Shown here: piece after piece, positions 3,775 through 38,842 of the stretch
How the letters are laid out: each line of letters opens with the position of its first letter
How positions within the stretch are numbered: the stretch's first letter is position 1
Source of the DNA: Amphiscolops sp. MND2022
Taxonomy: Eukaryota
Reading direction: 5' to 3'
Assembly (NCBI GenBank): GCA_964187785.1
Contig: OZ076409.1
Location: forward strand, 57,972,001-58,036,000
Length of the DNA: 64,000 bases
Position numbers and translations under genes: made by a program
Notes under the pieces: generated by a model
Told to the model about the DNA's origin: nothing
The model's input: the letters and a program-made list of their open reading frames with translations, nothing else
Databases searched by the model: none

Positions 3775-4840
3775 TTTTAGGCAGAGCAAGAGAGTGATTG
3801 TTCTTTGGAAAACTTGAATTCTTCAAAGAAATATGGTTTTCAAAACGAAGTATTAACGGAGTAGATTAGGAAACAGATTAAACAGATTTACAAATCCTTA
3901 GGTATATATACTTTCACAGCATCATTTGTTCCTCACCTAAAAATTCCTAGGAATCCTTAAATCAGTTTTGTTCATCAAAATTGCTTAATCATCCTTATTA
4001 TTTCAACCTTTCAATTAATTGTTCACGATTTAAAATTCCTAGTTACGGCTCCCTTACGGAGTACTTTGTTGAAATCATTTTTGTTCATTATCATCATTTC
4101 CGGTTTGATCGCGGAAAAAGGCGGCAAACTGAAAGTCTAGTTGAATTTTCATCGAGAAAGGCACGCTGGCGTGATCAATGATTCATCTCGAGACTAGTAA
4201 AATCGTCTGTTCACGATAAAAGAATGACAAGCAAAACTGACTACGGAAATATCTCGGAGTGATTTTGGATAAATGTGCTGAGAATATTTTGAAAAGAACA
4301 AAAGATGCTGGAAAACGGTTAATATCGATCAAGAGCTGAGATAGCAACCAACACAAAATCATTTTGAGCTTCTGAACTAATTTTACATGTATTGGAACAT
4401 AATGGTTTGATTAATACAAATCAGTGGCTCATCTAGCCCAAAGAACATAACATAATAAATGTACAAAACATCCTTTTCCGAAATGAAGGAAAGCACCTTT
4501 TCTTTTAATGATTTCCTTAATGATGTTTTAATCTGTAGTACGATCATTTTTATTAGGTATTAAACGGGAACAATTCGGAAAGGTATTATTTTAATGTTAT
4601 GATATTTTGAACATTCCTTTTCAGTTCCGTATAGCATAGGGAGTATCTTGATGTATTAGGTATTAGAACAATTGTGATCTTGTAGCATTTCTTTTTAGTT
4701 GTCCTGTATGTATTAACATTAGGCATAACCTTTTCATTTCACAATTTGCTCCGTAAGCGCTCCGTACGTATTAAGATTAGGTATAGCTTCTTCGCATTAC
4801 AATTTGCTCCGTAAGCGCTCCGTACGTATTAAGTTTAGGT
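3393..4840 (-). repeat. 5' LTR of A, major segment (remainder at 21824-21874)
   Basis: Inner boundary set by the PBS. The about 58-bp tandem unit at 4720-4840 resumes directly after element B's target-site duplication. Confidence 0.75.
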
Positions 4841-6669
4841 TGTCGCCGACCTACCCGTGCGAGATATCCGGGGTGCAACATCAGTGAAGCAGTCAACGCT
4901 GTTTACCCATCATCGTAGCTGTCTACCCGAATATGGACAGGAACTCAATGAACATTTCAAATTTTAAACTTAAACAATGTTGGTTATTGTTCGTTTAATA
5001 AAATGTTGCTTTCGTTTGTACATTTCATCTAAAATGATGATTGCTGAATGTCGTTACTGTTGTTATTGTTTCACCCATAAGGTGCTTTGATTAATTGAAA
5101 AATAACTGGAAAGGTAACACCTAAGTTACCAATACAGTGCTAAACCTTTGTTTTACCATCCTAAATCATAGAAAGGAATTAAATCCAATGGTCTTATATA
5201 TCTGTACCACATCAGAGCGTTTGTAGTTCAATCATGAAGAAAATGATCAAAAACAGTATGATGATTCATTTAGAAACCAGCATAATGATCTAGTACATCT
5301 ATTTGATACTGATTATGCGGCATTATGCGGTTTTCATGAAGCAGCATATGCGGTTTTGTTAAAGAAACAGCATATGCGGTTTTATTAAAGAAACAGCATA
5401 ATGATTATATGCGCAGTGTAGTTCATGCTTTGTATTGCATTATGCGGAAATTCAACAAAAACAGCATGACGACTTGAGTTAAAAACAGCATATGCGGAAA
5501 TCTAGCAGAAACAGCATGACGGTTCAGATTGGAAACAAACAGCATATGCGGAAATCCCGTGGAAACAGCATGACGTTTCAATACGGGAGCAGCATATGCG
5601 GAAACCTGACAAAAACAGTATGAAGTTTTAACTGAAAAGCAGCATAATGATTCTTATTTCAGTTGGTAAAATTATACTGCATTATGAGGATTTCATGAGA
5701 CTGCATATACTACATTATGATGTAAAACAGCATAATTTGCAGAATTCTTAGTGCTATGCTGTTGTGAGTCCCAGTGCTATATTTAGACCTTCCAGGAGTC
5801 TGACGTAATATCATATTTTTAACATTTGACCCTAGATATATGACGTTATGATGATTTGAGTAAATTTGATGGTCATGCAACTAAAAATACCGCCCAATAA
5901 AATCACTTGAGAAGGACCCCCTTAAAAATCATTTTTTCCACGATCATTCGCAACATAACACTCGAACAGAACAGTTGTTCAAATTCAAACCCAAACAACT
6001 TTGCAGTTTCTGAATTTACAGTTCTCTTTTCTGTAAAATAATTCCCAACTTTCATTTCACCCTATATCTTTGAAATTCAAAGATTTTCTTCAATCAAAAC
6101 TGTTTTCAACATGGGGAACAGGAGGAATAGAAGGACAAGAAGAACTACATCTCAGTCTTCAGACAGAGACGAAAATACACCAGAAACTAGTTTCGCACAA
6201 GGTAATGCGACTTTAAATAATGTTTCTGAAAATGTTAACAATATTTTTGACAGGAACTTAGGCAGTGAACTAACAGAACCGTCTCAAATAAGCAATGAGA
6301 TAGAAGTTATTTCGCAAAGACTAACAGAACAGAACAACGACAAGATGTCGCAGATTGAAGAGCATCTAAATAACAAATTTGAAGAGATACTTAAGGAGAT
6401 TAGAACAAACAAAAACTACATAGTAATAACTGATGAGGAGGATGCCGAGAAAAACCAACCTGGTCCTTCTAACTCTAAAAATAAGGGTCTCAGAAACAAA
6501 CACGCATCAAACACAGCTCTAGACAAAAATAAGAATCAGGATAATCGGTTCTATCCATCTGAAATGAGTGAATTAAGACAACCATACACTCCCCTTGGGA
6601 TTACTGAAAACACATTGGACGAATCCATCATTATAAATGAAAACAGACATGAGAAGGCCGATCATCACA
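4841..6669 (+). repeat. 5' LTR of B
   Basis: TGTCGCC...CATCACA. Direct repeat of 19990-21818 with about 6 substitutions seen by eye. Confidence 0.97.
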
Positions 6670-7775
6670 TGGTGACAGGACCTACCAAGAACATTCTGAG
6701 ACAAAGTTCGACTAACTCCAACATCACAAATACACAAGGACCACACGCACAAACTCCTCTCGAGCATCCTGAGCAAACAGATCCCGTCAGCCAAATTGCC
6801 ATAGCAATCGAAAATCTTGCACGAAGAAATACAGAACCATCTCTTTTCCACCCGAAGAATACGCTTACTTTCAACGGGAAATTAGAGAAAAATGAAAAGT
6901 TCGAGTATTTTGAAGACCTTTTCCACACAACACTCAAAATGCAACCACACCTCACGGAGGACATGAAAATCAACCATTTCCATGCTCATCTAAGAGGACT
7001 AGCATTGAAAACTTTCAAAAACATTCAAAGAACTCCGACAACAACACTTGAAGACATACTAGTAGTCTTCAGGAGGAAATATGTTAAGCCCGAATCCAGC
7101 GCCTCAGCAAAACACAGATTTAACAGACTTATGTTCCAACCAGAAAACCAAAAACTACCCGACTTTCTTGAAGACCTCCAAGAAAGCGCTGAAAAAGCTT
7201 TCGGTGAAGCAGCACCACAGATGATTGAGAGCCTGATATATGCAAAAATGCCCCCTCATCTCAAAAAATCAATCAACCAGGCTTACTTCGAAAACGGTAC
7301 CTATGAACAAATAGTGAAACATCTAGAAAGAGAGATGGAGCTCAATGGACTCGAAGCGGATGAGCCCCTAGTGAAAACTCAAATGACGGCAGTCAAACAA
7401 ACCAACACCCAAAACACTAAAACACCCTCACAAAACACAAAAACAAAAACAAAAACCCCAAACACAGTACCCAACAACACACTTCAAGATAACCAATGCC
7501 GATACTGCAAGGATGAAGGCCACATAGCAAAAGAGTGCCCAAAACTTGCAAAGCGACAAAAAATGGATCAAGATCCAGATGCACCAAGATGTTCCCATTG
7601 TAACACTCCTGGTCATGAGGAACCAAACTGTTACTTTGGAGCTAACATGGAAAATCGTCCATCTAAATGGACACTCACTGAAACCCAGAAAAAACTAATC
7701 GAAGAATATAAAAAATCAAACAAACCAATCAACCCTCGAACTCCGAAACCTTCAACATCGAAGGATTTAAACTAA
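6111..7775 (+). CDS. gag: Gag of element B (554 aa; first 186 codons inside the LTR)
   Basis: Capsid-like FEYFEDLF...HLEREMELNGL; knuckles CRYCKDEGHIAKEC and CSHCNTPGHEEPNC. Confidence 0.95.
   Translation: MGNRRNRRTRRTTSQSSDRDENTPETSFAQGNATLNNVSENVNNIFDRNLGSELTEPSQISNEIEVISQRLTEQNNDKMSQIEEHLNNKFEEILKEIRTNKNYIVITDEEDAEKNQPGPSNSKNKGLRNKHASNTALDKNKNQDNRFYPSEMSELRQPYTPLGITENTLDESIIINENRHEKADHHMVTGPTKNILRQSSTNSNITNTQGPHAQTPLEHPEQTDPVSQIAIAIENLARRNTEPSLFHPKNTLTFNGKLEKNEKFEYFEDLFHTTLKMQPHLTEDMKINHFHAHLRGLALKTFKNIQRTPTTTLEDILVVFRRKYVKPESSASAKHRFNRLMFQPENQKLPDFLEDLQESAEKAFGEAAPQMIESLIYAKMPPHLKKSINQAYFENGTYEQIVKHLEREMELNGLEADEPLVKTQMTAVKQTNTQNTKTPSQNTKTKTKTPNTVPNNTLQDNQCRYCKDEGHIAKECPKLAKRQKMDQDPDAPRCSHCNTPGHEEPNCYFGANMENRPSKWTLTETQKKLIEEYKKSNKPINPRTPKPSTSKDLN
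6670..6680 (+). promoter_or_regulatory. Primer-binding site of B (TGGTGACAGGA)
   Basis: Immediately follows the LTR-terminal CA; same core as A and C. Confidence 0.85.
7766..7772 (+). promoter_or_regulatory. -1 ribosomal frameshift heptamer T TTA AAC at the gag/pol junction of B
   Basis: X XXY YYZ pattern immediately before the gag stop; the -1 frame matches the pol ORF frame. Confidence 0.8.
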
Positions 7776-10700
7776 TAAAGCCACGTCTTCAAAACGAAAC
7801 ACCACAAAAACAACTCTCAACTGATGACTGGCAGCATCAGCAGAGCCCAAAACCAATAAAAACCACAGTCTTTGATCACCACACTAATAAAAACGACTCT
7901 CACACTACAGACACCCAAAATACCATTCCAAACACTTCAACGGAAGATCTCTATGACTTACTCAAAGATGCCCCAGATAATTATCTACTACGACATATAT
8001 TCGAACCCGAAATTGAACCCGAAATACAAAATCAGCAACCCACAATCTCACAACCCCAAGAAACACAAACTGACCAATCAAACGTACAATCTACATCGAC
8101 AACCCAAACTGACAATGACACTACATCGGAATTAACCAAAACTCTCTTCAATGCGTCTCCTGGAAAACAACCTCTCCTTGATGCTGACGTTTTCAATCAC
8201 CTCACAACAGACGAAGGTAATAACGTCGCATACCTAAACCTTTCCACAAACCTTACCCTTAAAAAGAAACGTCATATGTACTACTTCCCAATGGATTTCG
8301 AAAAACTAACTCTGGATGGACTTATTGATACTGGCGCTCTTACTAGTGCCATCTCTGAAGAAGACCTTAACAAAATAAAGCTCCTTTCAAACGAAGCCAT
8401 AAAAGATACTGGTCCAGCACCCAACTTTCAAATCATGGTAGCCAATGGTCAACTTGAGCGACCTATCGGCACCGTCTTACTCCAGTTTGAAGTAGCAGAC
8501 TTCCAATTTCAAGAAAACTTCATCGTCATGAAGGTGCTACCCAACCCATTAATCGGCCTGTGTTTCCTACAAAGACACAACGCTATGTTTGATATACGAC
8601 AGGGGATTATTACCTTCCCCTACTTGTCCATGCAACTACGACCAGATCACACAACAAATACCCGAACAACAACACCTCTTCTAACAGAAACTTCATATAC
8701 CCTACAACCTGGCGAAACCCTTGCAATCTCCAGCAAAATGCCACACCTGATAGATCACAATGCCACAGGCATTGTAACTCCGTCTTCACACATGGAAGAA
8801 CATGAAAATATTTTTATTGCATCTTCCCTGAGTACGGTTAATAACAATGCAGTGGGCTACCAAGTGATCAACTTTTCGGATATGCCCTACACCATCCCAA
8901 CGGATACACACATGGCAGATTTCCGAGTCCTCACGCCCGAACAGATTAAACACATCAAACCTGTTGATCCATCAACCCTCACATTCATGATGCACCAACA
9001 CATAGAAAACACAGATTTATACCTCAACCAATTGGTGAAAACAAATCAATCATCAGACGAACAAGAAACTTACTGGTTCCCAACGCCTGAAGAACCTGGG
9101 GATCCAGACACATATACTCCAATACAACAACGCATATATGATGAACTACTAGAACTCAAACAACTAGAACAATTAAACCCAAACGACAACGATGAATCAA
9201 GAAGGAAATTTCTCAGTCACTTCGACTGGACAGACACCACCCTGAGCCCATTCGAAAAACAGCACATAGAAGACATTCTGGTACAATATCACGACATCTT
9301 CGCTAGACATCGTTTTGATATAGGTACCAATAGAGAATTCAAGGTCAAACTGACTCCGAATGATGACCGACCAGCCTACAGTCAAAGTCTTCCTACTCCC
9401 ATCAACCTCAAGGACGACATAACTGTTGAACTGGCCCTTCTTCATCGTTATGGAATCATCACGACCCTACCGTTCTCTAAATACGCAAGCCCTATTTTTG
9501 CTCAGAGGAAACCAAATGGACGTCTTCGACTTTTGGTGGACCTCCGTAAAATCAACAACCTCATCACTCAAGACTACGTGAACAACAATCACCCAGTTAG
9601 CACGTTGTGAGAAGCAGCACAACATATGGCTGGTAAAAAACTTTTTTGCAAACTCGATTGCTCTCAAGCATACCATTGTTTGCAAATGGCAGACTATCAG
9701 TCCATACAGATGCTAGCCTTTAACTTCGCGAGCCGAACATTCGCATATCGTCGCCTCGCACAAGGACTCAGCCGATCCCTGTCTGCTTTCTCATCCTTTA
9801 TGAGAGAATATTTGGACAAGGCAATCAAAGCTGATCAGTGCGCTCAATATGTTGATGACATCGGCATTGCTGCAAATGATTCTACCCAACTTTGCATCAA
9901 CATCAAAACAGTCTTTGAATGCATACGCAAAGCAGGACTCAAGCTTACGATGGCCAAATGCCATTTCGGAGTCAAACAAGTTGACTTCTTGGGTCGAACA
10001 ATTACCCCACAAGGAGTCTCACCCCAAACCGAAAAAGTCAAACAATTCCTTCAAAAACTTAAATTTCCGAAATCCAAAAAAGCACTCCAAAGATATATTG
10101 GGTTTCTCAACTACTACAGAAACTACATCCCTCGCCTATCAGAAAAACTAACTCCTTTTTTCAAATTGCTCAAACAAACATCACAATTTTTCATTCCGGA
10201 TACAATTCTAGAAGCATTCAAAAATCTCAACCAACAACTGGAACAATCATGCAAACTTGCTCTCAAACAATAGATTAAAAATAAACAACTCATATTGATG
10301 ACCGATGCCAGCTTCACAGCTGCAGGATATGCAATCATGATTGAAGATGACCCCGACCAAAAGCTACAATCTATAAGAAAAACCTATGCTCCAATAGCTT
10401 TCGGTTCAAAAACTTTTAACACAACCCAATTGAAAATGTCAATATACGCAAAAGAGTTCCTAGCCATCTATTTTGCGTTTTCTGAATTTGGACACTTAAT
10501 GTGGGGAAGCGTCTTCCCTGTTATCGTCTTCACAGATAACAGATCCGTAACACGCTTTTTCCAAACAAAAATCATTCCTCCGGCTCTTTGGAACGCATGC
10601 GATTACGTCCTCCAATACAACTTCGTCATTGCACATGTTGCCGGAGCCATGAATACGGCTGCAGACTTCCTATCGCGCGCTGAATGGAACCCTACAGAAA

Positions 10701-12757
10701 AACTTGAAATGAACATCCGTAATGATGCCAATACAAAAGCAATAGAAGTTAACATACAGTCCACTGGGGTCGCCGAAGAGGAACTCCTATATATACTCCC
10801 CGTTGAATGCCCCACAGAACAACAATTATGGGAAGAAAAAGAAGCAATTCGTCAATCAGCAAAAACCGAAACCCACAATGAACCAGAAAATGAAGTGTCT
10901 GAACTCCAAACCTTCCACAAGCCCACTGCGGGAACCATCAACTATAGGGAGGGACACTTCAAAGACAATGCAAAAATACGTTTAGAACAAAACAATGATG
11001 AAGTTCTACGCAATTTGAGAGCCAAAATTGAAGGCGAACCCTTCGACGAAACCCAATTCACACAAGACTACCGATACAAACATTATCTACAAAACATCAC
11101 AAGGATTGAAATCAAGCAAGATGTCCTAACAAGAAGATACTACAATGACACTGGGTTGATATCCCATTATCAAATCCTTTTACCCAAACAACTCCTGGAC
11201 GAATTCCTTCATGCCCTTCATGGTCATAACGCAAATCATCCGGGAATAACCAAAATGATCCAAGAAGCACGACAAAAATACTACTACCCGTGCATCGCCA
11301 AATATATCCGAAATTGGGTGACAAAATGTCAAATGTGCATCCAAAACAAACGGATCAACAATGACTTACTTAAAACGGAACTACTAAATTGCCCCGAATG
11401 GGATTTGGGCCCAGAGGACATCCTACAAATGGACATCCTTCCCAATCTCCCACCAAGCGGAGGATATGACAACATCATCACCGCAATAGACGTGTTCTCA
11501 CGCTATTTGTTTGCCTACCCAGTCACGAGAATCACTGCTCCAGCAGTGGCAAAAATCATCATGGACATTTTGTGTAAACACACATATCTACCCACAACAA
11601 TTATTACCGACATGGGCACTCAATTTAATTCTCAGGTAACAAAAGAAGTAGCTGCAGTCCTGAACATAGAACTGAAACATGCAACGACAAAACACGCCCA
11701 AACAATTGGACTGTTAGAACGTACTCATGCATCAGTTAAAGCGCACCTTAAGGCAGCCACTGGCGAATTTAGAAACAATTGGCACAAGTTTCTACCATTG
11801 GCAGTCTTAAACCATAATACAACCTACCACGCAACACTTGGATTTGAACCTACTCGGGTCTTCCATGGAAGAATTCCGCACAACATACTAGACTTCAAAC
11901 TGGGGTATAACCCAAATCCTCGCTTCCAACCCCAAACGGAGGTAGCAGAGGAAGTACAAAGAAGGATTGCTTTACTTCACGATCAAACGAAGAAAAACAT
12001 CATGCAATCTTACCTCAAATATAAAGCATATTACGACAGGAAAGCAAAGGCATCACCTCTAACGACAGAGGATTATTGCTTTATCCTGAATCCAAAAGCT
12101 GACACACAAGCAACGAAGATACCTTTTCGTGATTTTCGTTGGGTTGGTCCCTATAAAGTTGAAAAGGTCCTTCCGAACAATAATTATATTGTTCGTAGAT
12201 TGGGCACGAATAAAACCCAACTACTCCACCGCATTCGACTACGAAAATATACTCCACAAGCTCCTCTCGCCGATAATTTTGTCAGAGAAACTGACTGGCA
12301 GAAAGAGGATACACTTGTCTCTCAAGATGACTTATATGCCCATGCTTGGGACAGTAATTTTGGCAGCAGTCCATTCGATCCTGACCACGAAGTCTGTGAT
12401 CAACAGGAAGACACGGTGGATAATGAACCTACTCCTCAACCAAAAATATACCACCCTCCCGCCCTCGATAAATCAAAAAATAGTGGGGGGATCCCAGCAG
12501 GACAACCTGCTGCGAACGACACAGAACCTCAAATAACCGAAAAAACTTCCTCAGAAAATGAAAACCATGAGCCCATTCCAGAAACTTCCAGAAATCCAGA
12601 AGACATTCGAGAAAACCCTACCCAAAATTCCCCAAAAACTCCCGAAATCAACCCAGAAAATGACGCACAAATTGAAGAAACCATTAACACAAGAGGCGAA
12701 AAATATAACCTACGCCCAAACCCTAACCCAAACTACTCAGACTCATACAGATATTAA
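7766..12757 (+). pseudogene. pol: Pol of element B (PR, RT, RNase H, integrase) with two in-frame nonsense codons (9608-9610 TGA, 10271-10273 TAG)
   Basis: ORFs 8276..9610, 9626..10273 and 10295..12757 are in one frame. Motifs LIDTGA, QYVDD, MTDAS, HPG...CQMC, IITDMGTQF, WVGPY. Confidence 0.93.
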
Positions 12758-13049
12758 AAAACAAATCAAGAGACTCAGAGACTGAATTATATACTATGAT
12801 CTCCTTCGTCTTTCTTTCTCTCATGTTTTATCTTCGTTCTTTATCTCACTTCTAGTCAAAATTGGAAGCTATCATTTTTTTCTCTCCAAACTGGAGGTAA
12901 ATCAAATGAGGCAAATGAAAACATCAAATGAGGCGTAATCAGCCAAAAAAGAGAAAATAATCATACAAACAAAACAGACATCAAATCAGCAAAATATAGA
13001 AAATTCAAGAGTCAAGATGAAACATCAATGGTCAATTCAAGTCAATTCT

Positions 13050-16000
13050 TCAGTTCTTATCTCCTTCTTTCCTTCGGACAACTAACTTCTTAACCCCAGC
13101 AGGCTGGGACTCTGGCAAGATCGGCACGTCCGCTCTAAATCGGGGACTCGAAAGGGCAGATGTTGCAAACACAGGAGATTTTCGGGTGTTCTTGCTTGTT
13201 GCCCCTGTTGGCTCTGGACCGCTCTGAATGGGAGTAGGAGCAACAAATTTGGAAGGCCTAGGGGACTTAGGAGATTGAGCGGGACTTGAACTAGCTGATT
13301 GCGGCTTATCATGAAGCGCTACCCAAGATTTCTCTTCATCGGAAATAGTACAAGTGTACCGAGAATCGAAATGGTTAAATATAGGCCGCCGTCGGGACGA
13401 ACATGACGAAGTAAGGTCCCAGACTGACAGATAAGCGTCTTCTAGTAGAGCCCGCCCTTTTCCGAGCAAAGAAAAAACAGAAGAAACAGTTCTCGGGTTG
13501 GCATACAATTCAGACACATTGGGCACTCCAACCAAAGAAGACTGAATGCTCCTAACACAGGACTGGAATTCACGGAAATCAGATGCAAGTTCGGGTATTT
13601 CAACAGTAAAAACAGGAGGGATAACGTGGACCCCTGACAAACTCAGAGTACACAGCTTGAAGACTGTAAACAAATTCTCCCGACACTGAAGTTCATAATA
13701 ATTCGACATAAAGCTGATCCATTCTCCCTCATAAGAAATGTTTTGGGATCTGAATTTCTCCGCAAACGCTCCATACTCGCTCAAGACCAATGGTTTGGTT
13801 GTGTGAGATATCCATTTTTGCTGCACCAAGTAGTCACAAAGTAACTCAGATTCATGGGCATAGTCCTCCTCTTCTCCGTAACGGACAACGGCTTCATCGA
13901 ACACAGAAAATCCTCGGACAAGCTTAGACTTGGAAACTTTATGCTTCAGAAGAAGGATGCAGAAGTTTTTATAAAAACATATTGCTTGTTCAACGAACCG
14001 AGTGGGGGTCGGCAAATCACTTTCTGCAACAAGTTTGGCAAAGTCCTTGTTTTGCATGAAATCCGCAACAGACTTTATAGGTAGATCTGGAGAAGTGAGA
14101 TCAATGGACATAAAATGATCCCAATTGGAGATGTTGCCAAGGAAGGAGTCAGGTAATATAAATTGTAGCTGACTGTAGACAAATGTAGTAAAGGCGCTGT
14201 ATACTCGGAAACCGTCAGGAGGGGAAACTCCATTCACCCCTTCGAAAGCAGAGTTGTCTGAACACAAGTAACGATTAAAAACAACCTGAGTAACAGTATC
14301 AAATACCGACCAAAATAAACTACCGCGAAAAGAGAACTAACAGTGTAGAAGCACATTTCGGATCAAGAATAACTTGGCTGCGTATGACTTGTCTTTGAAG
14401 AAAGTTTCGTCAAGACTCTTGGGCTGGAAAAATAATAAAAACTGAAAATCAGACGGAAAAGGAAAGCAGAATGGAGGAATAAACTGATAATTACCTCTTT
14501 CATATGGTACTTAAATGCCTTCAATCGGTCGGCAAGTCGGAGATGGGAGATGACTTTGCTCCAACTTCGACACAACTGATCAAGAACCACAACTGACTCA
14601 ACAAGACTGTACTTGAGGCTGGAGATGGCCTAAAACAACAATGTTAGAATGATACTACGATAACGCTTTAAAATGCGGAATAAAATCTGCAATTCTGATG
14701 CATTATGCGGTTTTCCGAACACCGCATAGAATGTCAACCAGTATACAGCATAAATAATGCACATTATGCGGTTTCCAGAAGAAAACAGCATAAACGAACA
14801 AAATATATCGTCTACACCGTTTTCTAGAGAAAACGGTATAGAAGGATGCATTACGAAGAAGAAATCAGCATGAAAGAAACCATTATGCAGTTTTCTTGAG
14901 AAAACAGCATAAGAAGAAACCATTATGCGGTTTTCAGGAGAAAACAGCATAAGAAGAAATCATTATGCGGTTTTCAGGAGAAAACAGCATAAGAAGAAAT
15001 CATTATGCGGTTTTCAGGAGAAAACAGCATAAGAAGAAATCATTATGCGGTTTTCGGGAGAAAAGAGCATAAGAAGAAATCATTATGCGGTTTTCAGGAG
15101 AAAACAGCATAAGAAGAAATCATTATGCGGTTTTCGGGAGAAAGCAGCATAAGAAGAAACCAGTATGCGGTTTTCAGGAGAAAACAGCATAAGAAGAAAC
15201 CATTATGCGGTTTTCAGGAGAAAACAGCATAAGAAGAAATCACCATGCGGTTTTCAGAGCGGAGCATAGGAACAAATATACCATATTATATGGTCTATTC
15301 GTTATGCTGCTTTATGCGGTTTTCAGAGCGCAGCATAGGAACAAATATACTATATTATATGAATCCCCTGACAGTGATAAAACAGTTGAATACGGATTGT
15401 GAATGACCAACAACGAGCAATTTTCTGTAGAAACCTTGAAACAAAGCCCAAAAGGGTAAGAAAGAAAAATTACTTTGCGGAGTTCAGGAAGGTCGTTCAA
15501 CCAAGTAGACCCAGAAGCGGTTCGCAACTTCATCAGAAGAAACTGCAGTACGCTGTGATAGTCATAGCGGTCCAAGATCTTGACAGTGGGTCCCGCTAAC
15601 AGTTTGTCCAAATCTTCGTGCGAAAAGGTGGGCACCACACACACTGTAGGTACCTGAACGGATTCGGTAATGATTGTTTTGGTGGTACGTCCATCAAAGC
15701 CAAGGAGTGAATAAAGAGGGGGTATACTCGGGAATGCAGCAAGAAAAGAACTGACGATCTGAAGAATTTCTTTCGCAATCATGAGGCTGTTTGGGATTTC
15801 AGCTAGTAAAAGATTGTTGAATACGTTTCCAGACCAGAAAGTTAAGACCACTTGGGAATTATCCTGATTGGAGTGAAGTTGGAGTGAGAATTGACCCGAC
15901 TGACCAATCGCAGTAACTGAGTAAGACAATAAAGTGCGGAACATGTGGACTAAGATTCCCTGCGAAAACGAAATGTGGTTACCTAAAAGAATGATAATTA

Positions 16001-17740
16001 AAAAGACAACCAAAACGATAGGAAGAGACTTACAAAAACGCGATCTTTATCCCAGCTGTATTGAGGCACCTTGACTGGTCCTCTGACTTCAAGCCCGAGA
16101 TTCCCCAGAGGGAAGTGAGAGTATGTAAGTCACCGCCATACTTCAACCCAGTCAACAGAATTCGTATTTGGCAGCATATTGTGGTGCTTGGGTCTAATTC
16201 ATCAGTCGGCACAGGAAGTTTGCGCTGTCCAGCAAGTAGGTAACATTCCCCAAGAATAGGAGCAATGGGAATTTCCAGTTCAGCCTTCTCTCGTGCCGCA
16301 ACTAAATCGGACCCAGTGAGCTCCAACTCATTTTTTCCGTAAAGTGGCATGCCAGGAGTTTCCATCCTGATGCGGTGTTCGCGGACTAAATGGGCGTCAG
16401 TTCTATAATGGGAAGGAATTTCGAGAGAACCTTTAGTCTTCAATGACAATTCTATATGACAAACTCTGCAACGCCACTTATGAGGGTTGTTGGTGGAATC
16501 AATTGGTGCGGTTACGAAGAACTTGAAGATGGGATGTTTCCTGTACATACTCCCTGTCAATTGCATTCTTGGTCGCGGCCGCTTGGAAGCTGAGTGTCGT
16601 TCACCTGGGTTAGTACAGGCTGTACTCTTTTCTCTCGCCCTAGTCTGTCTTCTCCCTTTGCGAGAATGTCCTGCGGGGGGTGTGGTTTGGCCCCCTGTTG
16701 TACTGGCGGGTGACACCATCAAGGATGACTCCATATTCGTCACACTGGTTTCCGTCCCTGTTGAGGTCCCAGGAGGCTGTGACGCGGGTACGGTAAATTG
16801 TTCTATAAGCTTTGAACTAATAGAAGTGGTCAATTCAGAAACCATAACTTGCATGCGCTGTTCTAACGCCAACAAGTCCAGACTGGTAACATAGTTACTT
16901 GAGGAAGTAAGCTGCCCAGCTTCGGTTGCGGTGGATGTTTGAGCGACAGGGGATATAGCTCTTGGGGTAATGGCCTGTGAGGTCCGATTGAGGAAGGTGG
17001 AAAATGGGGAAAGACAAGTTTTACCCACTTGTGAAGTTCACCCTGAAGAACCACTTGGTTCAACTTCATGATCGTCCTTCTCTGAATGACCCGTAGCATG
17101 CAAGGAAGGTTGCTCAATATCATCTTTGGATTGGGGATTAGTGTCATCCCGTGAAGCAGATGCAAGAAAGCTAACAGTGGTTTCTCTACGAGGCCCATCA
17201 GAACTTGAAACATGGATGCTAGTATCAAAGGAATGCCTTATACCGTCTATATCGACAAAAGATTTTGAACCTTCATTGCATTCCATTTGATGATCTGGTG
17301 TCGAATGATGAGTTGGGTTACCAAAGGGAAGTAAAGGGGTGAAATCAGCTGTGGAGAGGGGATCTTGAGCCGGAAAAGCAGAAGTGAGTGTAGCTGAAAC
17401 AAATATGAAATCAGCAAATATAGAAAATTGGGACAGCCAAAGAATTGACTGTTTAAGATAGTGGGAGCCTGATCAACTCTCACTTTAAACAAACAGGACT
17501 AGCTAGTTCGAAAAAATTATTCACGACTTGAAACAGGAAATCCAGAATTCAACCTGCGGATAGTTGGTGAAAACCGAAATTTGTTCAACAATCGGAACAG
17601 GATATTCAAAAGAACCTTCGATGATTGTGTGAAACCAAATCTTCGCCCTATTTTAATTAAGTTGGACGGAAAGAATCTCAAAAATACAGACCTTGTGTTG
17701 GCTCTTCGCTTCTTTCTTGGCCGGCGTCTTTCCCTTCCAT
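13050..17740 (-). pseudogene. Antisense multi-exon accessory gene of B: C2H2/BED-like zinc finger plus hAT-transposase-like body; damaged
   Basis: ORF pieces 17038-17286, 16030-17028, 15312-16013, 14363-14590 and 13050-14267 align collinearly with C's 817-aa ORF. Predicted GT-AG introns 17691-17394, 16033-15960 and 15473-14630, plus two short ones between 14494 and about 14286 (last frame unresolved). In-frame TGA at 17038 and a 1-nt frameshift near 16104. Confidence 0.75.
14881..15240. repeat. Tandem array of nine 40-bp units (CATTATGCGGTTTTCAGGAGAAAACAGCATAAGAAGAAAT), each an imperfect inverted repeat
   Basis: Units begin at 14881, 14921, ... 15201; degenerate copies extend over about 14690-15360. 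Confidence 0.97.
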
Positions 17741-19088
17741 TGTAGAATAAGTTTCCACAGAATAGAAATTGAAACCCCTTTGTGGTAAATCCAAATTTCA
17801 ATAACGAGAAGCAGCGGCACTCGAAAAGCGATTGCAACTGGTAAACGAAGAAGAATGGAGGTTTGGAAAAGACGAAAACTGTAAATAAATTTGACAAACG
17901 ATGGAAACTAAAAGAAATAAAGGAAGTAGAAGAAGATTGAAGTAAAAATCCTCGTGAGACTGTTAAACGACGAAGGAAAGACTATGAAAACACAAAGACT
18001 GTGAAAAGATAAAGACTCAGAAACTTGAGACAATATGTGAATCAAAGAAGAAACAATCTTGGAAGGCGTGGCAAATAACATGAAGGCAATAAAGCAAATG
18101 AATGACGTCAATTTCACAATATACACAATTCACCTTGAATCTGATTGGCTGAGAGAGTGTATGCGGCTTGGAAATATCTGCCAGTATGACCAAGTTAATA
18201 TGCATACGCTGTTAACACGCAGGAATTGGATTATGCGGAAAATTTACAAAGCAGCGTGATGCTGTTATGCGGAAAGTTTACAAAACAGCATAATATAGTT
18301 ATTTGGAAATCACAGTTGAACAGTACATGAAATTAAAAAGAGACTGAAACAACATGGCAGACAGGATGACAGCTTCACGCGGATACAGTGATAAACCAGC
18401 ATAATGGTTCGTCACATTGTGCGGTGAACTGCAGAAAACAGCATAAGATGGTTATGCGGAAAAGAATGATGAGCAGCATAACGAACTGCATAATGATGCA
18501 TAATGATAAACAGCATAATGATAATAGAACTGATGGATAGAATTATGATGCATTATGATGATTTCAGTATGCGGCGTATGATGCAAATGACTATTTGTTT
18601 TATATTATATGTCACGTGCTGATGAAAATATGAATCAAATTGGTTCGTCAAAAGAAGGTGTGAAAACTTTCACTTTGATAAACCTGAATGAACCTACGGT
18701 ATATTTAATTATGAGCAATTAAAATAAACCAGACGGAATGTGAAGACGGCAATCGGAACATGAAAGAAATTGAAAAGAGAATTTCAGAATAGGATGATTG
18801 TTTATATGATATTAACATTTTTACCGGTGCTATTCCCCTCATATCTCATGATAAATTACCTGAAAACCCGGGAAATGGGTAATTCGAGATATGTTTTGGT
18901 GCTATTTGTAAGAAAACCCCCGTAACCCAATAAAAAACTATAAAATCTTATCATTCTGATCAAAAATCTCCGAAAATTAGTTGCTTATTTTCTTCTTTCC
19001 ATTTGACAAATTCCTTGAGAATTTGATGATCATATTGTGCTAAATTTCTTGAAACTTGGCTGGAGCCAAATAAATCTAAAATCAAACA

Positions 19089-20036
19089 ATGGAAAGCACA
19101 CCACAAAACTCCATCGCTAGTAGAACTGACCCGATGAACCATGAGGTGGATCTGATCAACATTTCGAGCAGTTCGGGAGAGGAATTTATGGTGGAACCCC
19201 TCTCAGTGAATGACCTCGATGAAAGATTTAGAACTGCTCCATACCCTCTAACCGACATGTCCACAGCCTTTATGGGGGCAGCAGGTGCAATGCTATTCCC
19301 TAACAGTGTCAGTCCACAAGGAAGTGTTGGCCAACAAATCGATACCAGGGGCTCCCAGATTGAGAACGAGCTAATGGACCTCATGGATGATATATCTAAT
19401 ATATCCTCCCTGACTTTTATCGGTTCATCTTCAGAAGAAGATGATCCGTTCTTTGGTGCCAATTTCGCTAATGTGGAGCAGAATGGAAGGAACAGTTATG
19501 GCCGCCCAGTTCAAAGGGTACAACCCATGGTCAGAACCCCTCAAGTGACAAGGGAGACAGTAAATCCCCCTCTTGTGCCAAGCAACAGGAGCGCCTTCTC
19601 AGTAGTAATACCCGAACAACGAAGGGCTCCAGAAATACAAGCACACCCATCTATGCAAGCAAATTACTTACCTATGCCCGTTCCATTTTACCCAAATAAT
19701 TGGAACAATATTACACGTCCTCAACAACACTTCAATGGTCAAGCTCAGTTTCAGTCTCAGGGACCACCTAACGGACCCATATTGCAAATGAACCCTCCAG
19801 TGATGCCTGAAGTGGCAGGCTTTTGTGCAGGCTGTTCCAAAACTTATGACCAAATCGCCGTCGAGACGCTCACTCATTATGTTGCGTGGTCCGAATATCC
19901 TGACGAAACATTTCGCGATCGCAATGTGAGGTCAAGAGCATTTGTTGATGGGTTTGGAGCAGCGCTGATCTGCTTCAAAAATGCTGGACTGTCGCCGACC
20001 TACCCGTGCGAGATGTCCGGGGTGCAACATCAGTGA
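19089..20036 (+). CDS. Unknown 315-aa sense-strand accessory ORF of B; last about 15 codons lie in the 3' LTR
   Basis: Long ATG-initiated ORF with TATAAA about 150 nt upstream (18938). Acidic/Ser and Pro/Gln-rich N-terminal part, CxxC-containing C-terminal part. Confidence 0.7.
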   Translation: MESTPQNSIASRTDPMNHEVDLINISSSSGEEFMVEPLSVNDLDERFRTAPYPLTDMSTAFMGAAGAMLFPNSVSPQGSVGQQIDTRGSQIENELMDLMDDISNISSLTFIGSSSEEDDPFFGANFANVEQNGRNSYGRPVQRVQPMVRTPQVTRETVNPPLVPSNRSAFSVVIPEQRRAPEIQAHPSMQANYLPMPVPFYPNNWNNITRPQQHFNGQAQFQSQGPPNGPILQMNPPVMPEVAGFCAGCSKTYDQIAVETLTHYVAWSEYPDETFRDRNVRSRAFVDGFGAALICFKNAGLSPTYPCEMSGVQHQ

Positions 20037-21818
20037 AGCAGTCAACGCTGTTTACCCATCATCGTAGCTGTCTACCCGAATATGGACAGGAACTCAATGA
20101 ACATTTCAAATTTTAAACTTAAACAATGTTGGTTATTGTTCGTTTAATAAAATGTTGCTTTCGTTTGTACATTTCATCTAAAATGATGATTGCTGAATGT
20201 CGTTACTGTTGTTATTGTTTCACCCATAAGGTGCTTTGATTAATTGAAAAATAACTGGAAAGGTAACACCTAAGTTACCAATACAGTGCTAAACCTTTGT
20301 TTTACCATCCTAAATCATAGAAAGGAATTAAATCCAATGGTCTTATATATCTGCACCACATCAGAGCGTTTGTAGTTCAATCATGAAGAAAATGATCAAA
20401 AACAGTATGATGATTCATTTAGAAACCAGCATAATGATCTAGTACATCTATTTGATACTGATTATGCGGCATTATGCGGTTTTCATGAAGCAGCATATGC
20501 GGTTTTGTTAAATAAACAGCATATGCGGTTTTATTAAAGAAACAGCATAATGATTATATGCGCAGTGTAGTTCATGCTTTGTATTGCATTATGCGGAAAT
20601 TCAACAAAAACAGCATGACGACTTGAGTTAAAAACAGCATATGCGGAAATCTAGCAGAAACAGCATGACGGTTCAGATTGGAAACAAACAGCATATGCGG
20701 AAATCCCGTGGAAACAGCATGACGTTTCAATACGGGAGCAGCATATGCGGAAACCTGACAAAAACAGTATGAAGTTTTAACTGAAAAGCAGCATAATGAT
20801 TCTTATTTCAGTTGGTTAAATTATACTGCATTATGAGGATTTCATGAGACTGCATATACTACATTATGATGTAAAACAGCATAATTTGCAGAATTCTTAG
20901 TGCTATGCTGTTGTGAGTCCCAGTGCTATATTTAGACCTTCCAGGAGTCTGACGTAATATCATATTTTTAACATTTGACCCTAGATATATGACGTTATGA
21001 TGATTTGAGTAAATTTGATGGTCATGCAACTAAAAATACCGCCCAATAAAATCACTTGAGAAGGACCCCCTTAAAAATCATTTTTTCCACGATCATTCGC
21101 AACATAACACTCGAACAGAACAGTTGTTCAAATTCAAACCCAAACAACTTTGCAGTTTCTGAATTTACAGTTCTCTTTTCTGTAAAATAATTCCCAACTT
21201 TCATTTCACCCTATATCTTTGAAATTCAAAGATTTTCTTCAATCAAAACTGTTTTCAACATGGGGAACAGGAGGAATAGAAGGACAAGAAGAACTACATC
21301 TCAGTCTTCAGACAGAGACGAAAATACACCAGAAACTAGTTTCGCACAAGGTAATGCGACTTTAAATAATGTTTCTGAAAATGTTAACAATATTTTTGAC
21401 AGGAACTTAGGCAGTGAACTAACAGAACCGTCTCAAATAAGCAATGAGATAGAAGTTATTTCGCAAAGACTAACAGAACAGAACAACGACAAGATGTCGC
21501 AGATTGAAGAGCATCTAAATAACAAATTTGAAGAGATACTTAAGGAGATTAGAACAAACAAAAACTACATAGTAATAACTGATGAGGAGGATGCCGAGAA
21601 TAACCAACCTGGTCCTTCTAACTCTAAAAATAAGGGTCTCAGAAACAAACACGCATCAAACACAGCTCTAGACAAAAATAAGAATCAGGATGATCGGTTC
21701 TATCCATCTGAAATGAGTGAATTAAGACAACCATACACTCCCCTTGGGATTACTGAAAACACATTGGACGAATCCATCATTATAAATGAAAACAGACATG
21801 AGAAGGCCGATCATCACA
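19990..21818 (+). repeat. 3' LTR of B (contains the duplicated gag 5' ORF from 21260)
   Basis: Direct repeat of 4841-6669, followed by TSD TAGGT. Confidence 0.97.
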
Positions 21819-21823
21819 TAGGT

Positions 21824-21874
21824 ATAGCTTCTTAGCATTACAATTTGCTCCGTAAGCGCTCCGTACGTATTACA
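21824..21874 (-). repeat. Distal remainder of A's 5' LTR (TG terminus on the - strand at 21874)
   Basis: Another copy of the about 58-bp unit seen at 4720-4840, ending ...GTATTACA. Confidence 0.7.
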
Positions 21875-32464: not shown

Positions 32465-34358
32465 TGTGTTGACCGTGATTTAACCGTAAATCATTCGGTT
32501 CAACCGTTCCGGGTCTAAAATATGTATTCTCCAAGTCTTCATCATCGGGATCGTGGTGTGCGTTGTAGGACGGTTTTTCTGCTAGAGTGTCTATCTTAGA
32601 GGCTAGATTCTCTATCATTTTTAAAATCTCACGTTGTCCGATTTCCGTGTCTTTAATTCTTTTGCTGACGGACTTTTCTATTTTTTCTGATAACTCGTTA
32701 AAATCCTTGTCAGACAAGCAAGGGGTATTCTCAGTCCTCATGCTGGAAGACTCAGGTTCGTCTACTGAATTCACTGGGGAATCTCGCCTAGCTTTCCTTT
32801 TCGAGCTTCTCTCGGGCATCTTGTTCAAGTTTAAATTCTCAATTTTCTTTAGAAGGAATCTAAGTAGAATCTTGAGCAGAGAAATTTGAAGTTTTGAAAC
32901 TTTCAATTATTTTCAACAAAAGACAATTGCTTGCGATAAACAACAAAATTTTAACTAAATATGGCCTCTTGGTCCCATCATATTTATACCTTCCGATCGA
33001 GGAAGCAAGGAAAAGACACGCACATACTTCACATTTCGTTCAGCCCGGCGTCCATCCGAGGCAGGGAAAACGGAAATTCAGTTCCGCTTAGTCGAACTCA
33101 GGCTTTCAGTTTGTTCATGCTTCCCGGGGAAAGCAAGCGTCCACTTCCGGCCTGAGTTGCGACTTCGCTTTCCTTCCTCTCCAATCTCCCGCCTCTTCGA
33201 GACGCCGAACTGAACAACTAGCAAAAACACACGCTGTGACTCATCAAACGAAGTTAACAAACTGCACTAAATTTGGGAAGAAACGATGACAGTCAAATTC
33301 CTTTTACAGATATTCTCTAATTAAAATAAATTAGCAACGAAATGATAGAAAATTAAATGGAAAAAGTATGATGAACTGCAAAAGGGAGAGTAGAATCTTT
33401 TCTACGGTGTATTTGGTGATGTTTTAAATAAAACGGCAAAGCCTGGTCCCAGGCCATGGTCCTGGACGGACAAATTGGTTCAACAAAATACAGTGATTAT
33501 AAACAGTGTATAGCATCAGAGACATTATTTTATGGAATAATAAATGCAATTAAACGGTAACATGTTTAGGAAATGGTATATGCATGCAATTAACCCTTGG
33601 TTTGCATTTTGACATTGAGCCTTTGGCTCAGGCCACGGTTCAGGCTTATTTACTGATTAGACGCCATTTACATGTAAAAGTACATTATATGTAATATTCC
33701 AATCAACAGAATTATTTAGGATCATCAGTGATGGCTATTAGAGTTATTTCGAAACAAAGTTACATGTTAGCATCAACACTTTCTAATTTTGCGGACAGTT
33801 CGCTGTATTTTCATTCTCAGGCCGCGTCTCAGGCCGCGGTCCCAAATATTGCAATGAATAGGCGCGGGAATCTCAATTATTGGTATATATACAAAACTGC
33901 ACTGTCGATGAAGCACTGCATTAGCCATTAGTTTGTATGCATGTATTTACTGTAAGGGAATGCTTGTGTATTGGTTTACAAATCTCAGGCCGCCTGCCAG
34001 GCCACCGCTTTAGTGAGCGCATTTGAGGCCGGCCGCCAGGCCGCAGTTCCGTTCAAGAATTAATTGACTGCTTGTCAGGTTGAGTGTTTTACGTAGTATT
34101 GATATTAGCACTATGTTATTAACATTATTAACTGCACTTTAGCTCCGTTATTTGTAAGTACGTATTTAAATAAGTGTACATTAATATAGTAATATTAATA
34201 TATATATTTATTTATTTAATTGTTTCAAATTTAGCGCCTCTGTTTCTAATTGTCCCTTTGTTGTTTCTTTCTTGTTCTTTCCTCTCTTTTCCCAATTTAT
34301 TCTTTGAAGACTGGGTTACACATGTTGCAATACTCACAGCTTATGCGGGGCTGTGACA
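32465..34358 (-). repeat. 3' LTR of C (contains the duplicated gag 5' ORF, ATG 32819)
   Basis: Direct repeat of 46104-47997; all ORF-track translations inside are identical. Confidence 0.97.
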
Positions 34359-34857: not shown

Positions 34858-35075
34858 TGTAGTGTCAACTAAGCGTCAGTCAATTTTGTAGTACAACTGA
34901 TTTGCTCCGCTTGGAAGATTCGTTCACACGGTTTGTGTTAACTCCATGAATTGTTCAGCTGGCAGACTGAACAAATCTCCTTATATAGTAGATAACTTTT
35001 GATATTAGTAATTCCTTGTTTTACGCCACATCTTCTTTGGTTTTATGCTGATTGCTATTTTTAGATTGTTTGATA

Positions 35076-38000
35076 ATGAGTTCAACTGAAGAGGATAATG
35101 TCCTTCAGCGACAAAGTCGAGGAGCTGGTTTTATGGAGAGTGAGTTGGAGTCTGAGTCTGTCGGTGGGTCTATCATTCGAGGTGAAGAAGAAGTTACTGG
35201 TAGTGGTGGTCGGGATGAGAATGAGGAGGCTGGTGTCAGTGCTGCTGGTTCGAAAATACGTGGGTTCGGCGAGAAAGATGTGGATGATGACGAGGCCGAG
35301 TGTCCCGAGGAGACTGGATCTGTTCATTCGGATAGCAGTGATGCCCGTCATGAACTTGACTATCTTGCCAATAAGAAAGGTAAACTTTTCTAGAAATTGA
35401 TAGGTGGCCAGCCTTTTCTAGGTGTCTGCGAACGCGTTCTTTTTGATCTCTACTTTGTATTTAGTGTCTGATGATGAAACTGATGACGATTATCGCCCTT
35501 CCGGTAGTACCCAATCTCAGGGCAAGAAGAAGCGTCGTGCCAGTCGTGTGCCTTCTGTCGGGAGTGTGGGGCCTTCCAGACGGGTAAAGTTGGCTGATAT
35601 AATCTCTGGGTCTATGCCTGTGCCGCCTACACTGCGTGACAGTTCTGGGAACGAGTATGAGCCGCCTGTCATCAGCGCATCCAAGACTCTTGAAAGTAGG
35701 TATTCTTTCTTCTTTCTTTGTATGGCGTTAGGAATTTTATGGGTGTATGGTTTTGTGCTTTCGTCCATATTATTCCTCTGGTTGTGCACTAATTGTGATG
35801 TTATAGTCGTTGATCCTGGGTCTCAGGCGGTACCGGCGACATCGGAGGAGAGTGATGTCTTTGTCTGTGATCCGTCGCAGGAAACCCCGGCTGCAGAGAG
35901 TGAGGCTGTGTCCGTGTTGCCTGATTCTGGGGCTCGTTTTGAGAGGAGACAGCACTATCGTCCAGCAGTTGGCCTGGAGCCGTCCACCATCCACAATGAA
36001 TGGGAAAAAGGTATGTGTATTTGGTTTGTGTTCTTCCATACTCTGATACTGGTGGTTTTATTGTTGGATGTTATCTGTCATTCGCCTGTGAGGAGGGGGG
36101 TTTCTTCATTTGTTAGTTGTAAGGCAAGGTTTTGTCTTCTGTTTAGCTGGATTAGAGTCTGTGCCTTCTGGGTCTCCAGTCATTATGTCTGCCGCACAGT
36201 GTGTGATGTTCGCTCGATGTGCTGCCCGGAGCGAACGGAATGAAGCCATGAAGGAGACGAAGACTTTGGCTAAACGTAAGTTGTTGTCTGCAACTCTTTT
36301 TATCTGCTGTTCTATGAACTGTTTTGTCTGTATTTTCCGTTTGGTCTGTCCTTTTACTGCTGTTTGTTTTCGGGTTTGATTTGCAGTTTTGATTTCCAGT
36401 TGTTGTGGAGAGTGTTGTGTTTTAGAATTCGAGGAGTTGTCCCGGCTGTTGAAGTCAAAAGGCATTGATGCCAATGATCCCAGTCGTGTGTTAGATCCCA
36501 TTGAAGTGCGGAAGGAAAAACTGTTGGCCCGCGACGAGGAAAAGGCGAAACGGCAGTCTGAGCGTCATGTCTTGACAAAGGCTATGTGTCATCATGCCCT
36601 CCCGCGTTTGTTCGTGAGTCGCCGCAGTGACAAGAATCCCAACGGGTTCAACTGTGCCATCTGCCGCAAGGATGTCTCCTTTCTGTCCCGGGGTCCTCGG
36701 GGTATTTGGCGGCATTTCAAATGCAAGGGGCATTACTTGAAAGACCGAAGATATCGTTACGATCATGAGGACGTTATCTTCACAGAAGATTTTGACGCGA
36801 TTCCCGTGGGTGAGATATCTGCAGAGTTGCGGGAAGAAATTGAGAAGACGCCCCCTGTTACGCTCGGCAAAATGAACCCTTTCCTTGAGGACGAGGTGGA
36901 TGCACTGGTTGGCGTCCCGTCCAATGTGCCACCTTCGACGCTCGTGGGTTGTCTTCTGGAGCTTCTTAGGAGTGGCGGTTCGCAAGTGTTCTTACGCCGC
37001 TTGTGGAACCAGTTTAGAACCACTCTGCCGGTCGAGAGCCCGTACGCTTCTGTTACCTGGAGCAAAACTGAGACTCTTGTGGTGTTGGTGCAGACACTGT
37101 ACCCACGTGTGCTGAAACGTGTGAGGACTTGGCTGGGAGACAGTCCCTTTAGCCTGATACTACAGCAGTCCCGTTCCAGCGTGAGATGTTTTGTTCGGTG
37201 TTGCACAGATGACTCGACCCGTGAGATTTGTATCGCTGATGAAGATCAGGCTGCTGTTTCCTGTGAATCCGAAATTCAATGCTTGTCTCGTGCCTTATCG
37301 TTGGTGTCAACTCGTCGTGGACCCGTCTCTGTTGAGAATTGTTCTCCAGTTCTTTTCAACGCCTATGTCGATTGGTGTCGAGCAGTCGGGCGGCCTGTGC
37401 CTCTAGTTGCTGTGTCTTTTGATGGTGATCTGTTGCGGCGTATCGTGAACGATGCTGGTCTGTCGTGTGTGGGATCAGTGGATGCCTTCGCTGTGGTTGA
37501 GTATCTTGTGCAGCGTTTGAAGAGGGTCCGCCATCAGGCCTGGCTCCTGAATCTGCCCCAATTCCGTCTCTGCCTGGATAGTGGTGAAGTGTCATTTGCT
37601 GTTCTCTGTGATGTTCTGGAGGAGTTGTTGTCAAATTGGTCGGATATAAAGATTTGTCTTGCTAACGAAATGCTGCTGATGAAGAAGTCCATTAATGTGG
37701 TGGATCTTGATTCTTTGCTGTGTTCGGACCGATTGGGACTGCCGCGTCTCGCCTTGTTGCATGTGGTATTGCTGTGTTTCCGGACTAACTGTGCGAAGCT
37801 ATTTGATCCATCAGTTAAGGATTATGCCTGCAGGAACTTCGTTGACTTCTGTTTTTTCTACTGGAGTCTGCTGAGTAAGGTCAAGAAGGTGGGTCAGTTG
37901 CCTTCAATTGATTGTTGGTCTGAGTATATCGACCAGCCCTTAACAAATTGGCCCAACGTTGCTGCTGGTGAGTGTCTCCAAGGTGAGCCTAGTATCCTAA

Positions 38001-38842
38001 AGGCTCTGCGTGGGTTTGACGTTACGCCTCGACGAGCTTTCTTGAAGGAGTGTCAGACTTTCTTGCTGGAGTTGCTCAAACAGCTCAGGGCATCCAGTTA
38101 CGCCAGTTCTCGGGTCGCCCGCTCTCTCAGTTGCCTGAGTGTGGACATGTTGCTCGGCGGAGATGCAGGTTACGTTGTGGAGTTGTTTCAGGACTTGGTC
38201 GCCTGTTTCCAGGAAGCTGGTTATTTGGGTAGTCTGGATCGAGAAGCTGCTGTAAACGAGTTCAAGTCATTGGTGGTGGATCTTCGGCAGTTATCGACCG
38301 ATGCCTCTCAGATCAAGGACGTGTTCGTTTATCTGGAGGATAATACCAGTTATCAGTGCCGCGCCCATGTGAAACAAGTAGTTCGTCTTGTGCGTGTTAT
38401 TGTTGGGCCTGCTCCTGCTGCCATGCCTGTTGTGGACATCTCTATGAGTGGAACAAATCTGCCGCCTAGTGTTATCCGTTCTGGGCTGAGTGCTGTTCAG
38501 TCATTTGTTTTGCATCCAAAGTTTGTCGTTGGTGAGTTGCTGACCGTAGGGTGTCTGGAGGAGTTAAAAGTCAACCTGCCTGTTGGGCATCGGTTCCTGG
38601 CACGGACTGAGTTTGATCCTTGGACTGATGTATGCCGCCATTCTCGTGCTGGGATTTTTAATGACTTGCTCCAGTGTTATACGGCGTATTATACAGGGCA
38701 GGTTGAGGAGTGGAGGGCCCGTGTGACAACTGTTGGTGCTTCTACCAGTGCTGTTCCTGGGGGCAGTCAAAGTGGAGCTGGTTCTTCGTCAAAAGGACCG
38801 AAGAGTGGTACCCGGGCAACGCGGTCTGGGAAGTCGACTTGA
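35076..38842 (+). CDS. Antisense five-exon accessory gene of C (predicted 1,094 aa): acidic N-terminus, C2H2/BED-like zinc finger, degenerate hAT-transposase-like body
   Basis: Exons 35076-35379, 35465-35695, 35807-36010, 36147-36275 and 36426-38842 are joined by four phase-1 GT-AG introns that keep frame (3,285 nt). FNCAIC...WRHFKCKGH finger; homologous to B's antisense gene. Confidence 0.82.

Follow-up and report, generated by a model that had tools for sequence, protein, structure and literature searches.

The arrays of a short, spaced dyad in element B, a Ty3/gypsy LTR retrotransposon, are family-specific constrained sites, and the zinc-finger protein encoded on the antisense strand of the same element is a strong candidate for their reader. 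We put at roughly 0.55 the probability that these arrays are bound by the antisense protein of the element itself, which would most likely work as a trans-activator. The wider proposal is more tentative and falls somewhat short of even odds: that a large Ty3/gypsy group captured a hAT transposase, lost its catalysis and uses it as a private, family-specific transcription factor, with fingers and operator arrays having co-diversified into many parallel codes within a single genome.

Element B occupies positions 4841-21818 of the 64-kb window, that is, of the whole stretch of DNA that was analysed. Its parts are as follows.

4841..6669, plus strand: 5' LTR, 1,829 bp, with TG...CA ends; holds the start of gag
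5258..5735, plus strand: motif array of the presumed U3, with six exact and several degenerate dyads
6111..7775, plus strand: gag, with a CCHC knuckle and a weak match to the Ty3 capsid
6670..6687, plus strand: primer-binding-site-like sequence (putative role), which begins TGG and abuts the 5' LTR
7712..12757, plus strand: pol (protease, RT, RNase H, integrase)
13050..14423, minus strand: last exon of the antisense gene, its limit predicted from splice signals
14630..15473, minus strand: predicted large intron, splice sites predicted, holding a 40-bp tandem motif array
15474..15982, minus strand: predicted middle exon, conserved within the B superclade
16033..17472, minus strand: finger exon, with a CCHH finger near 16410-16490
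18060..18600, no strand: predicted promoter region, flanked by the antisense gene and the sense ORF, with a small motif cluster
19089..20036, plus strand: sense accessory ORF, 315 aa, extending into the 3' LTR
19990..21818, plus strand: 3' LTR, with an array as in the 5' LTR at 20407-20884

The hallmarks of a Ty3/gypsy element are all present in B: paired LTRs with TG...CA ends (1,829 bp each and 99.7% identical to each other), a short target-site duplication (5 bp, TAGGT, at 4836-4840 and 21819-21823), and gag followed by protease, RT, RNase H and integrase. Two in-frame stops, near 9610 and 10273, interrupt the pol of the window copy. The LTR includes the first 140-190 codons of gag, 5' of the primer-binding-site-like sequence (6111-6669 in B; likewise in the neighbouring elements A and C), so that the start of gag is repeated in the 3' LTR in all three. 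A putative TATA-like box at about 5776 lies downstream of the U3 array, and the predicted promoter region at 18060-18600 holds what we take to be CCAAT-like and GC-box-like words. The sense accessory ORF has a conserved C-terminus with a CxxC that is common to clades B, D and E; it is under purifying selection within B (median dN/dS 0.15, 10 pairs) and had no match in Pfam or in the Atlas. Another sense ORF in the env position, likewise without known domain, is at 34297-34875 (minus strand), and such ORFs reach or enter the 3' LTR.

The insertion point of B is the motif array in the 5' LTR of A (window 4702-4840 and 21819-22558; L019, L020). Element A is otherwise whole and has an antisense finger gene of its own. 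Elsewhere, the window contains tandem repeats of 227 bp (26895-27347), 126 bp (48642-48921) and 32 bp (26411-26639), the 227-bp and 126-bp units being mutually related in inverted orientation, as well as a pair of 91% identical fragments of another repeat family (28383-28718 and 50200-50523). The features of the two neighbours that bear on the argument are given below.

4702..4840, resuming at 21824-21880, plus strand: LTR array of element A, a 58-bp tandem unit with CTCCGTA pairs at a distance of 11 bp
33440..34070, plus strand: LTR array of element C, CAGGCC pairs 12 bp apart, with a copy near 47250-47650
36380..38842, plus strand: antisense gene of element C, an 820-aa open frame and the basis of the fold prediction

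The dyad TATGCGG-N(10-18)-CAGCAT has 23 matches in the window, compared with 0.01 predicted by shuffles, and all of them are on the plus strand and inside B (5324-20720). Six lie at 5310-5760, six in the second LTR, nine at 14765-15336 and two at 18266-18479. The earlier note saw no clusters outside B; the relaxed dyad occurs there once in the window, at 50256. That note had located the clusters in both LTRs, in the large antisense intron and at 18230-18580; the LTRs and the intron hold up, but the last interval has just two exact dyads, the remainder being degenerate. The array in the intron is a 40-bp tandem repeat of 10 copies with 94% identity (14704-15340). The window has far fewer than 23 independent sites, since one LTR duplicates the other at 99.7% identity and most of the intron array is tandem. 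The description of the dyads as having unrelated middles likewise fails for the second LTR, as a copy, and for the intron, as a tandem repeat. More generally the middle is not free: near-absence of information is limited to the central 3-6 bases of the spacer, at about 0-0.1 bits. The edges of the spacer are A/T tracts.

The spacer is N14 in 19 of the 23 window dyads, N11 in three and N13 in one. Across the genome (1.07 Gb), the exact N14 dyad has 1,966 matches and a reversed control has one; in counts covering N12 to N20, the other spacers gave 182 matches (N12-13) and 202 (N15-20 together). Of the 1,966 matches, the first 100 listed fall into 25 clusters. Nineteen of the 20 clusters that were fetched lie in B-type LTRs or elements, with L051 as the exception, and about a dozen of those 19 resemble solo or truncated LTRs at 68-79% identity. 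Four further clusters of the 25, the window among them, adjoin B-type finger matches. The dyad is real and specific to the B-type family, and the fixed spacing and family specificity that had been claimed from the window are both seen genome-wide. One subfamily of B (L014, e.g. G000 C1:55024060) has a recurrent 13-base spacer in its LTR and few N14 dyads.

Constraint on the sites is visible when diverged copies are compared. In 16 B-type loci, down to 65-70% nucleotide identity, the relaxed dyad has a spacer of 14 in 258 cases and of 11 in 49, and every other spacer accounts for at most 20 cases. With a single half-site as the anchor, two sets of 110 and 204 non-redundant sites had the partner at N14 in 47 and 85 cases and no partner in 32 and 71, respectively; some regions in this set had been picked around exact dyads, a bias towards N14. 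Across six diverged subfamily pairs, with the sites defined on one member, half-sites in U3 were identical at 369 of 418 positions (0.88), spacer centres at 111 of 192 (0.58) and other columns at 0.73. Site conservation in the promoter region was modest between subfamily pairs (half-sites 83%, spacer centres 70% and other columns 72% identical). Orientation is uniform, with one reversed site among 17 loci. The inverted half-sites reported earlier are indeed there, but the dyad is asymmetric, its right half near-fixed and its left half variable, except that intron sites are symmetric in three subfamilies. Clade B also has some 10-bp direct repeats.

The antisense zinc-finger gene of A, B and C is under strong purifying selection. 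In the finger, pN is 0.10-0.14 against a pS of about 0.9; raw values are given because corrected dN/dS failed by saturation for most finger pairs. The antisense homologues of the neighbours A and C are 26-31% identical to that of B in the finger region. Each finger query of the genome returned at least about 150 matches, and gag or integrase adjoins 76 of the 79 finger loci sampled. At some places finger matches follow one another at regular steps of 13.6 or 15.2 kb (G000 C10:2574468-2602204, C13:16095936-16126719, C8:18262145-18276215), which suggests head-to-tail elements with a common LTR. Three distant relatives have matches of only about 30-46% in the genome, suggesting that they belong to other hosts. 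The window copy of the B gene is broken by an in-frame stop near 17040 and by a frame change near the 3' end of the finger exon, so the window copy of B would rely on other copies; near-identical copies of the gene have a longer open frame.

A hAT origin of this protein, in line with the earlier note's comparison to hAT fingers, is favoured by the predicted fold of the homologue in C. The model of the 820-aa C protein has a pLDDT of 84.6. In Foldseek, the Hermes hAT transposase takes ranks 1-10 (best E 1.2e-3, none below 1e-3), and in VIA it reaches Z 13.0 (rmsd 6.0, 396 aligned), with the next match at Z 6.1. From this model the antisense protein is predicted to be derived from a hAT transposase. 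The last exon of B aligns with residues 471-783 of the C antisense profile (hhalign 98.7%, E 1.4e-16, 309 columns). The middle exon of B has no detectable match to the profile of the C protein, and we therefore infer the hAT core of B from the homology of the parts that flank it, the finger and the last exon. Alignment A1 has no conserved acidic column at the expected strand ends or E motif, the presumed hAT D, D and E positions being placed by secondary structure; the protein is predicted to be catalytically dead, with its DDE triad lost. Its gene sits in an LTR element with a 5-bp duplication, without the terminal inverted repeats and 8-bp duplications of hAT elements.

The C, C, H and H of the finger are invariant in 38 of 38 aligned rows, and the finger alone is predicted to be of a two-strand, one-helix C2H2 type. 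Its fold matches are all weak, with RNA-binding matrin/U1-type fingers at Z 3.5-4.8 and BED fingers at Z 2.4-2.8. The antisense proteins had no match in Pfam, BED included, and a profile search against the sequences of solved structures gave nothing useful. In the Atlas, the leads for query P0001 were all below 0.9 and came mostly from hAT-related families.

The geometry of the motif shifts with the finger in a sister clade. In clade B the inverted N14 dyad is found in 14 of 14 introns, 17 of 17 promoters and 16 of 16 U3s; in the sister clade E, a 10-bp direct repeat of a related half-site is found in 22 of 22 introns, 22 of 22 promoters and 19 of 21 U3s, compared with about 0.3-1.5 in total per class in shuffles. 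No clade E locus has more than one N14 dyad, and 21 of 23 have none. The finger of clade E is about 55% identical to that of clade B; three adjacent finger residues are fixed in B (17/17), and two of these are different and fixed in E (21/21). The finger of clade D is about 59% identical to that of B and nearly identical around the helix. The sites of this clade are sparse, with four of 10 loci having one N14 dyad and seven of 10 introns an N11 dyad, and dyad searches in it found no dominant motif.

In the more distant clades, the U3 regions hold other words in same-strand pairs 11-12 bp apart: TACGGA (A and its kin), CAGGCC (C), GGGACG and GGACGT. At least two such pairs occur in 39 of 49 distant-clade U3 regions, and the other 10 have no repeated pair. 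By comparison, this was true of one shuffle in 920, one of the 19 other tiles of the window and none of the 9 tiles from gag-pol. The same test on the near clades gave 0 of 16 for B, 0 of 6 for D and 6 of 21 for E. Across clades, at least six unrelated words show this one-turn pairing.

Motif class requires a minimum of four changes on the finger tree and likewise four on the gag tree, so common ancestry explains the correlation equally well; in this comparison the class words were chosen by the analyst, the label of G13 was a tie, and the gag tree was a quick one without clades B, D and E. At L076, a G6-type finger is joined to an LTR that is 94-98% identical to that of G15 and carries identical sites. 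In L076 and L081-L084, recombination upstream of the finger exon has brought one finger cassette together with several LTR/gag types. Finger cassettes swap LTR types within a motif class, and class crossings number zero among 49 rows; this absence fits a compatibility rule and, equally, plain limits of homology. In some families, copied modules are common to U3, promoter and intron; they measure 115-155 nt at 67-74% identity in L115, and in B 64-100 nt at 70-77%. A concerted change of geometry between these three regions may therefore be partly mechanical.

It is unlikely that each family instead recruited host transcription factors to its arrays, with the antisense protein having another job. 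U3 arrays lying 5' of a TATA-like box look like ordinary LTR enhancers, and elements with different fingers carry one motif. ATGCGG resembles GCM sites and TGCGGT resembles RUNX sites, and the control regions of clade D have TGACTCA and CACGTG, which we take to be common host-type words. However, the dyad has no excess beyond its clade, since the one of 20 fetched clusters that lies outside is about what chance would give, and at least six unrelated words paired at one turn would require many host dimers of like geometry. Distinctly unlikely, in our view, is the explanation that tandem duplication and template switching in reverse transcription left the arrays behind as by-products with little or no function. 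The arrays are tandem repeats (of 26, 40, 54 and 34 bp) with modules common to several regions and with uniform orientation (one reversed site, 17 loci), all of which fit such an origin, and ancestry would account for the clade pattern. But by-products would hardly show half-sites conserved above, and spacer centres below, the surrounding U3, nor a spacer that holds at 14 though repeat periods and middles vary, over a divergence at which synonymous sites are saturated.

The motif might also act as RNA, forming a stem-loop that the finger would recognise in export, packaging or splicing. The halves could pair, over 7 bp with one mismatch, all sites run one way on the sense strand of the element, and the nearest finger folds include the RNA-binding fingers of TUT4, TUT1, SF3A2 and JAZ. 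We nevertheless consider this very unlikely: the left half varies without compensation (paired in 16 of 47 at one position and in 25 of 47 at another), there is little spacer pairing in the U3 and promoter sites, and the same-strand repeats of sister clades, at 10-12 bp, are unable to form such a stem. It is highly improbable that the reader is the protein of the sense ORF (19089-20036). That protein is conserved in B, D and E, under purifying selection and equipped with a CxxC C-terminus, but it has no known domain, and no B-type homologue of it was seen in A- or C-type elements, which keep paired sites.

Under the preferred reading, in which the antisense protein of the element binds the arrays, a hAT transposase that is predicted to be catalytically dead, and that carries a zinc finger at its N-terminus, would serve every copy of the family in trans. 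The fingers of an oligomer may read the half-sites at fixed phasing, much as hAT transposases do on subterminal repeats, and the A/T edges of the dyad suggest a Hermes-like need for an A/T flank and exact phasing. Array sites in the LTR would promote synthesis of genomic RNA, sites at the promoter of the antisense gene itself would give feedback, and protein from other copies would act on broken copies and solo LTRs. That the arrays lie upstream of the TATA-like box and at the promoter of the antisense gene suggests activation with feedback, comparable to foamy-virus Tas. If the protein does bind the arrays, its effect is probably activation or relief of silencing; repression or copy-number control would be considerably less likely, and a role in integration improbable.

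Anti-silencing through DNA demethylation, as in VANC, had been among the earlier suggestions and is weakly disfavoured. In 28 close pairs, transitions affect 480 of 13,217 CpG positions and 1,654 of 55,169 other C/G positions, a 1.21-fold excess at CpG, and CpG observed/expected in the window is 0.87. The methylase search of the genome gave five matches, among which no DNMT1/3-type gene was recognised. One match is presumably DNMT2-like and lies beside a frame that we take to be histone H2B-like (L121 6303-8789); a second, intronless cytosine methylase domain is located at L122 4586-5584. The weak CpG decay makes VANC-style demethylation less likely, but relief from chromatin or small-RNA silencing may still apply.

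For many families of a single genome both a protein and candidate sites are now identified, so that short oligonucleotides and isolated domains allow a direct test. If the preferred reading is true, a retrotransposon would have domesticated a DNA transposase for its own use, and a class I element would contain a VANC/Tas-like circuit made from a class II enzyme; the families would form a natural panel of finger-site pairs, and the circuit may help explain the expansion of these elements.

Plant DNA transposons and complex retroviruses are known to encode regulators of themselves that act sequence-specifically. For the VANC proteins of Arabidopsis VANDAL elements, which are Mutator-like, the accessible part of the source places the motifs in introns and upstream regions (PMC5735166). 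VANC and B are alike in having an element-encoded accessory protein and family-specific short motifs in one orientation, often tandem, in upstream regions and in introns of the accessory gene itself (PMC5735166), and dense family-specific arrays in non-coding regions are what B-type elements have. VANDAL is a DNA transposon whose VANC is not hAT and demethylates, whereas B is a retrotransposon with weak CpG decay and spaced, paired motifs. Pfam searches of the element proteins found no VANC or TnpA homology. Spm TnpA, in the available portion of its source (bioRxiv 10.64898/2026.08.24.746577), is likewise a transposase that lost catalysis and serves as a regulator, and its motif clusters follow family phylogeny. 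The TnpA systems described there are plant DNA transposons, whereas here a transposase that is predicted to be dead resides in a class I element; the main text of that source contains neither 'retrotransposon' nor 'LTR' as a whole word.

B has a layout like that of Retand, a plant Ty3/gypsy element for which the excerpts available describe an antisense ORF that separates pol from the 3' LTR, a transposase-named domain (TRP28), nearby family-specific tandem arrays and a proposed regulatory role (PMC11963269). Those excerpts confine Retand to flowering plants, describe no spaced motif or link between arrays and protein, and call the function of antisense ORFs and tandem arrays in LTR retrotransposons unknown (PMC11963269). 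TRP28 (PF04195) had no match in the element proteins at E 0.1. Other accessory genes of LTR elements, as presented in the accessible parts of PMC13547354 and PMC4402516, are different from the antisense gene of B. In the literature covered, which was mostly open-access, with repeat databases outside its scope, no LTR retrotransposon is described that combines a hAT-derived antisense gene with spaced arrays cognate to it.

The BED site of Hermes requires an A/T-rich flank and exact phasing, according to the part of the source available (PMC10368747), and the likeness to Hermes and other hAT transposases extends to the predicted fold, the N-terminal zinc finger and short, A/T-flanked, strictly phased sites (PMC10368747). 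The elements described here differ from hAT in that terminal inverted repeats are absent, the catalytic acids are not conserved and the finger is not clearly BED. Foamy-virus Tas, as portrayed in the accessible parts of PMC4929722 and PMC8670036, is a DNA-binding activator of the LTR and of its own internal promoter in a retroelement, and by analogy this is the circuit proposed here. Tas is encoded on the sense strand of a retrovirus and is not related to transposases, whereas the present gene is antisense and predicted to be hAT-like, and its activating role is proposed. The B-type system works like VANC/TnpA and foamy-virus Tas, has a Retand-like layout, and is a member of none of these groups.
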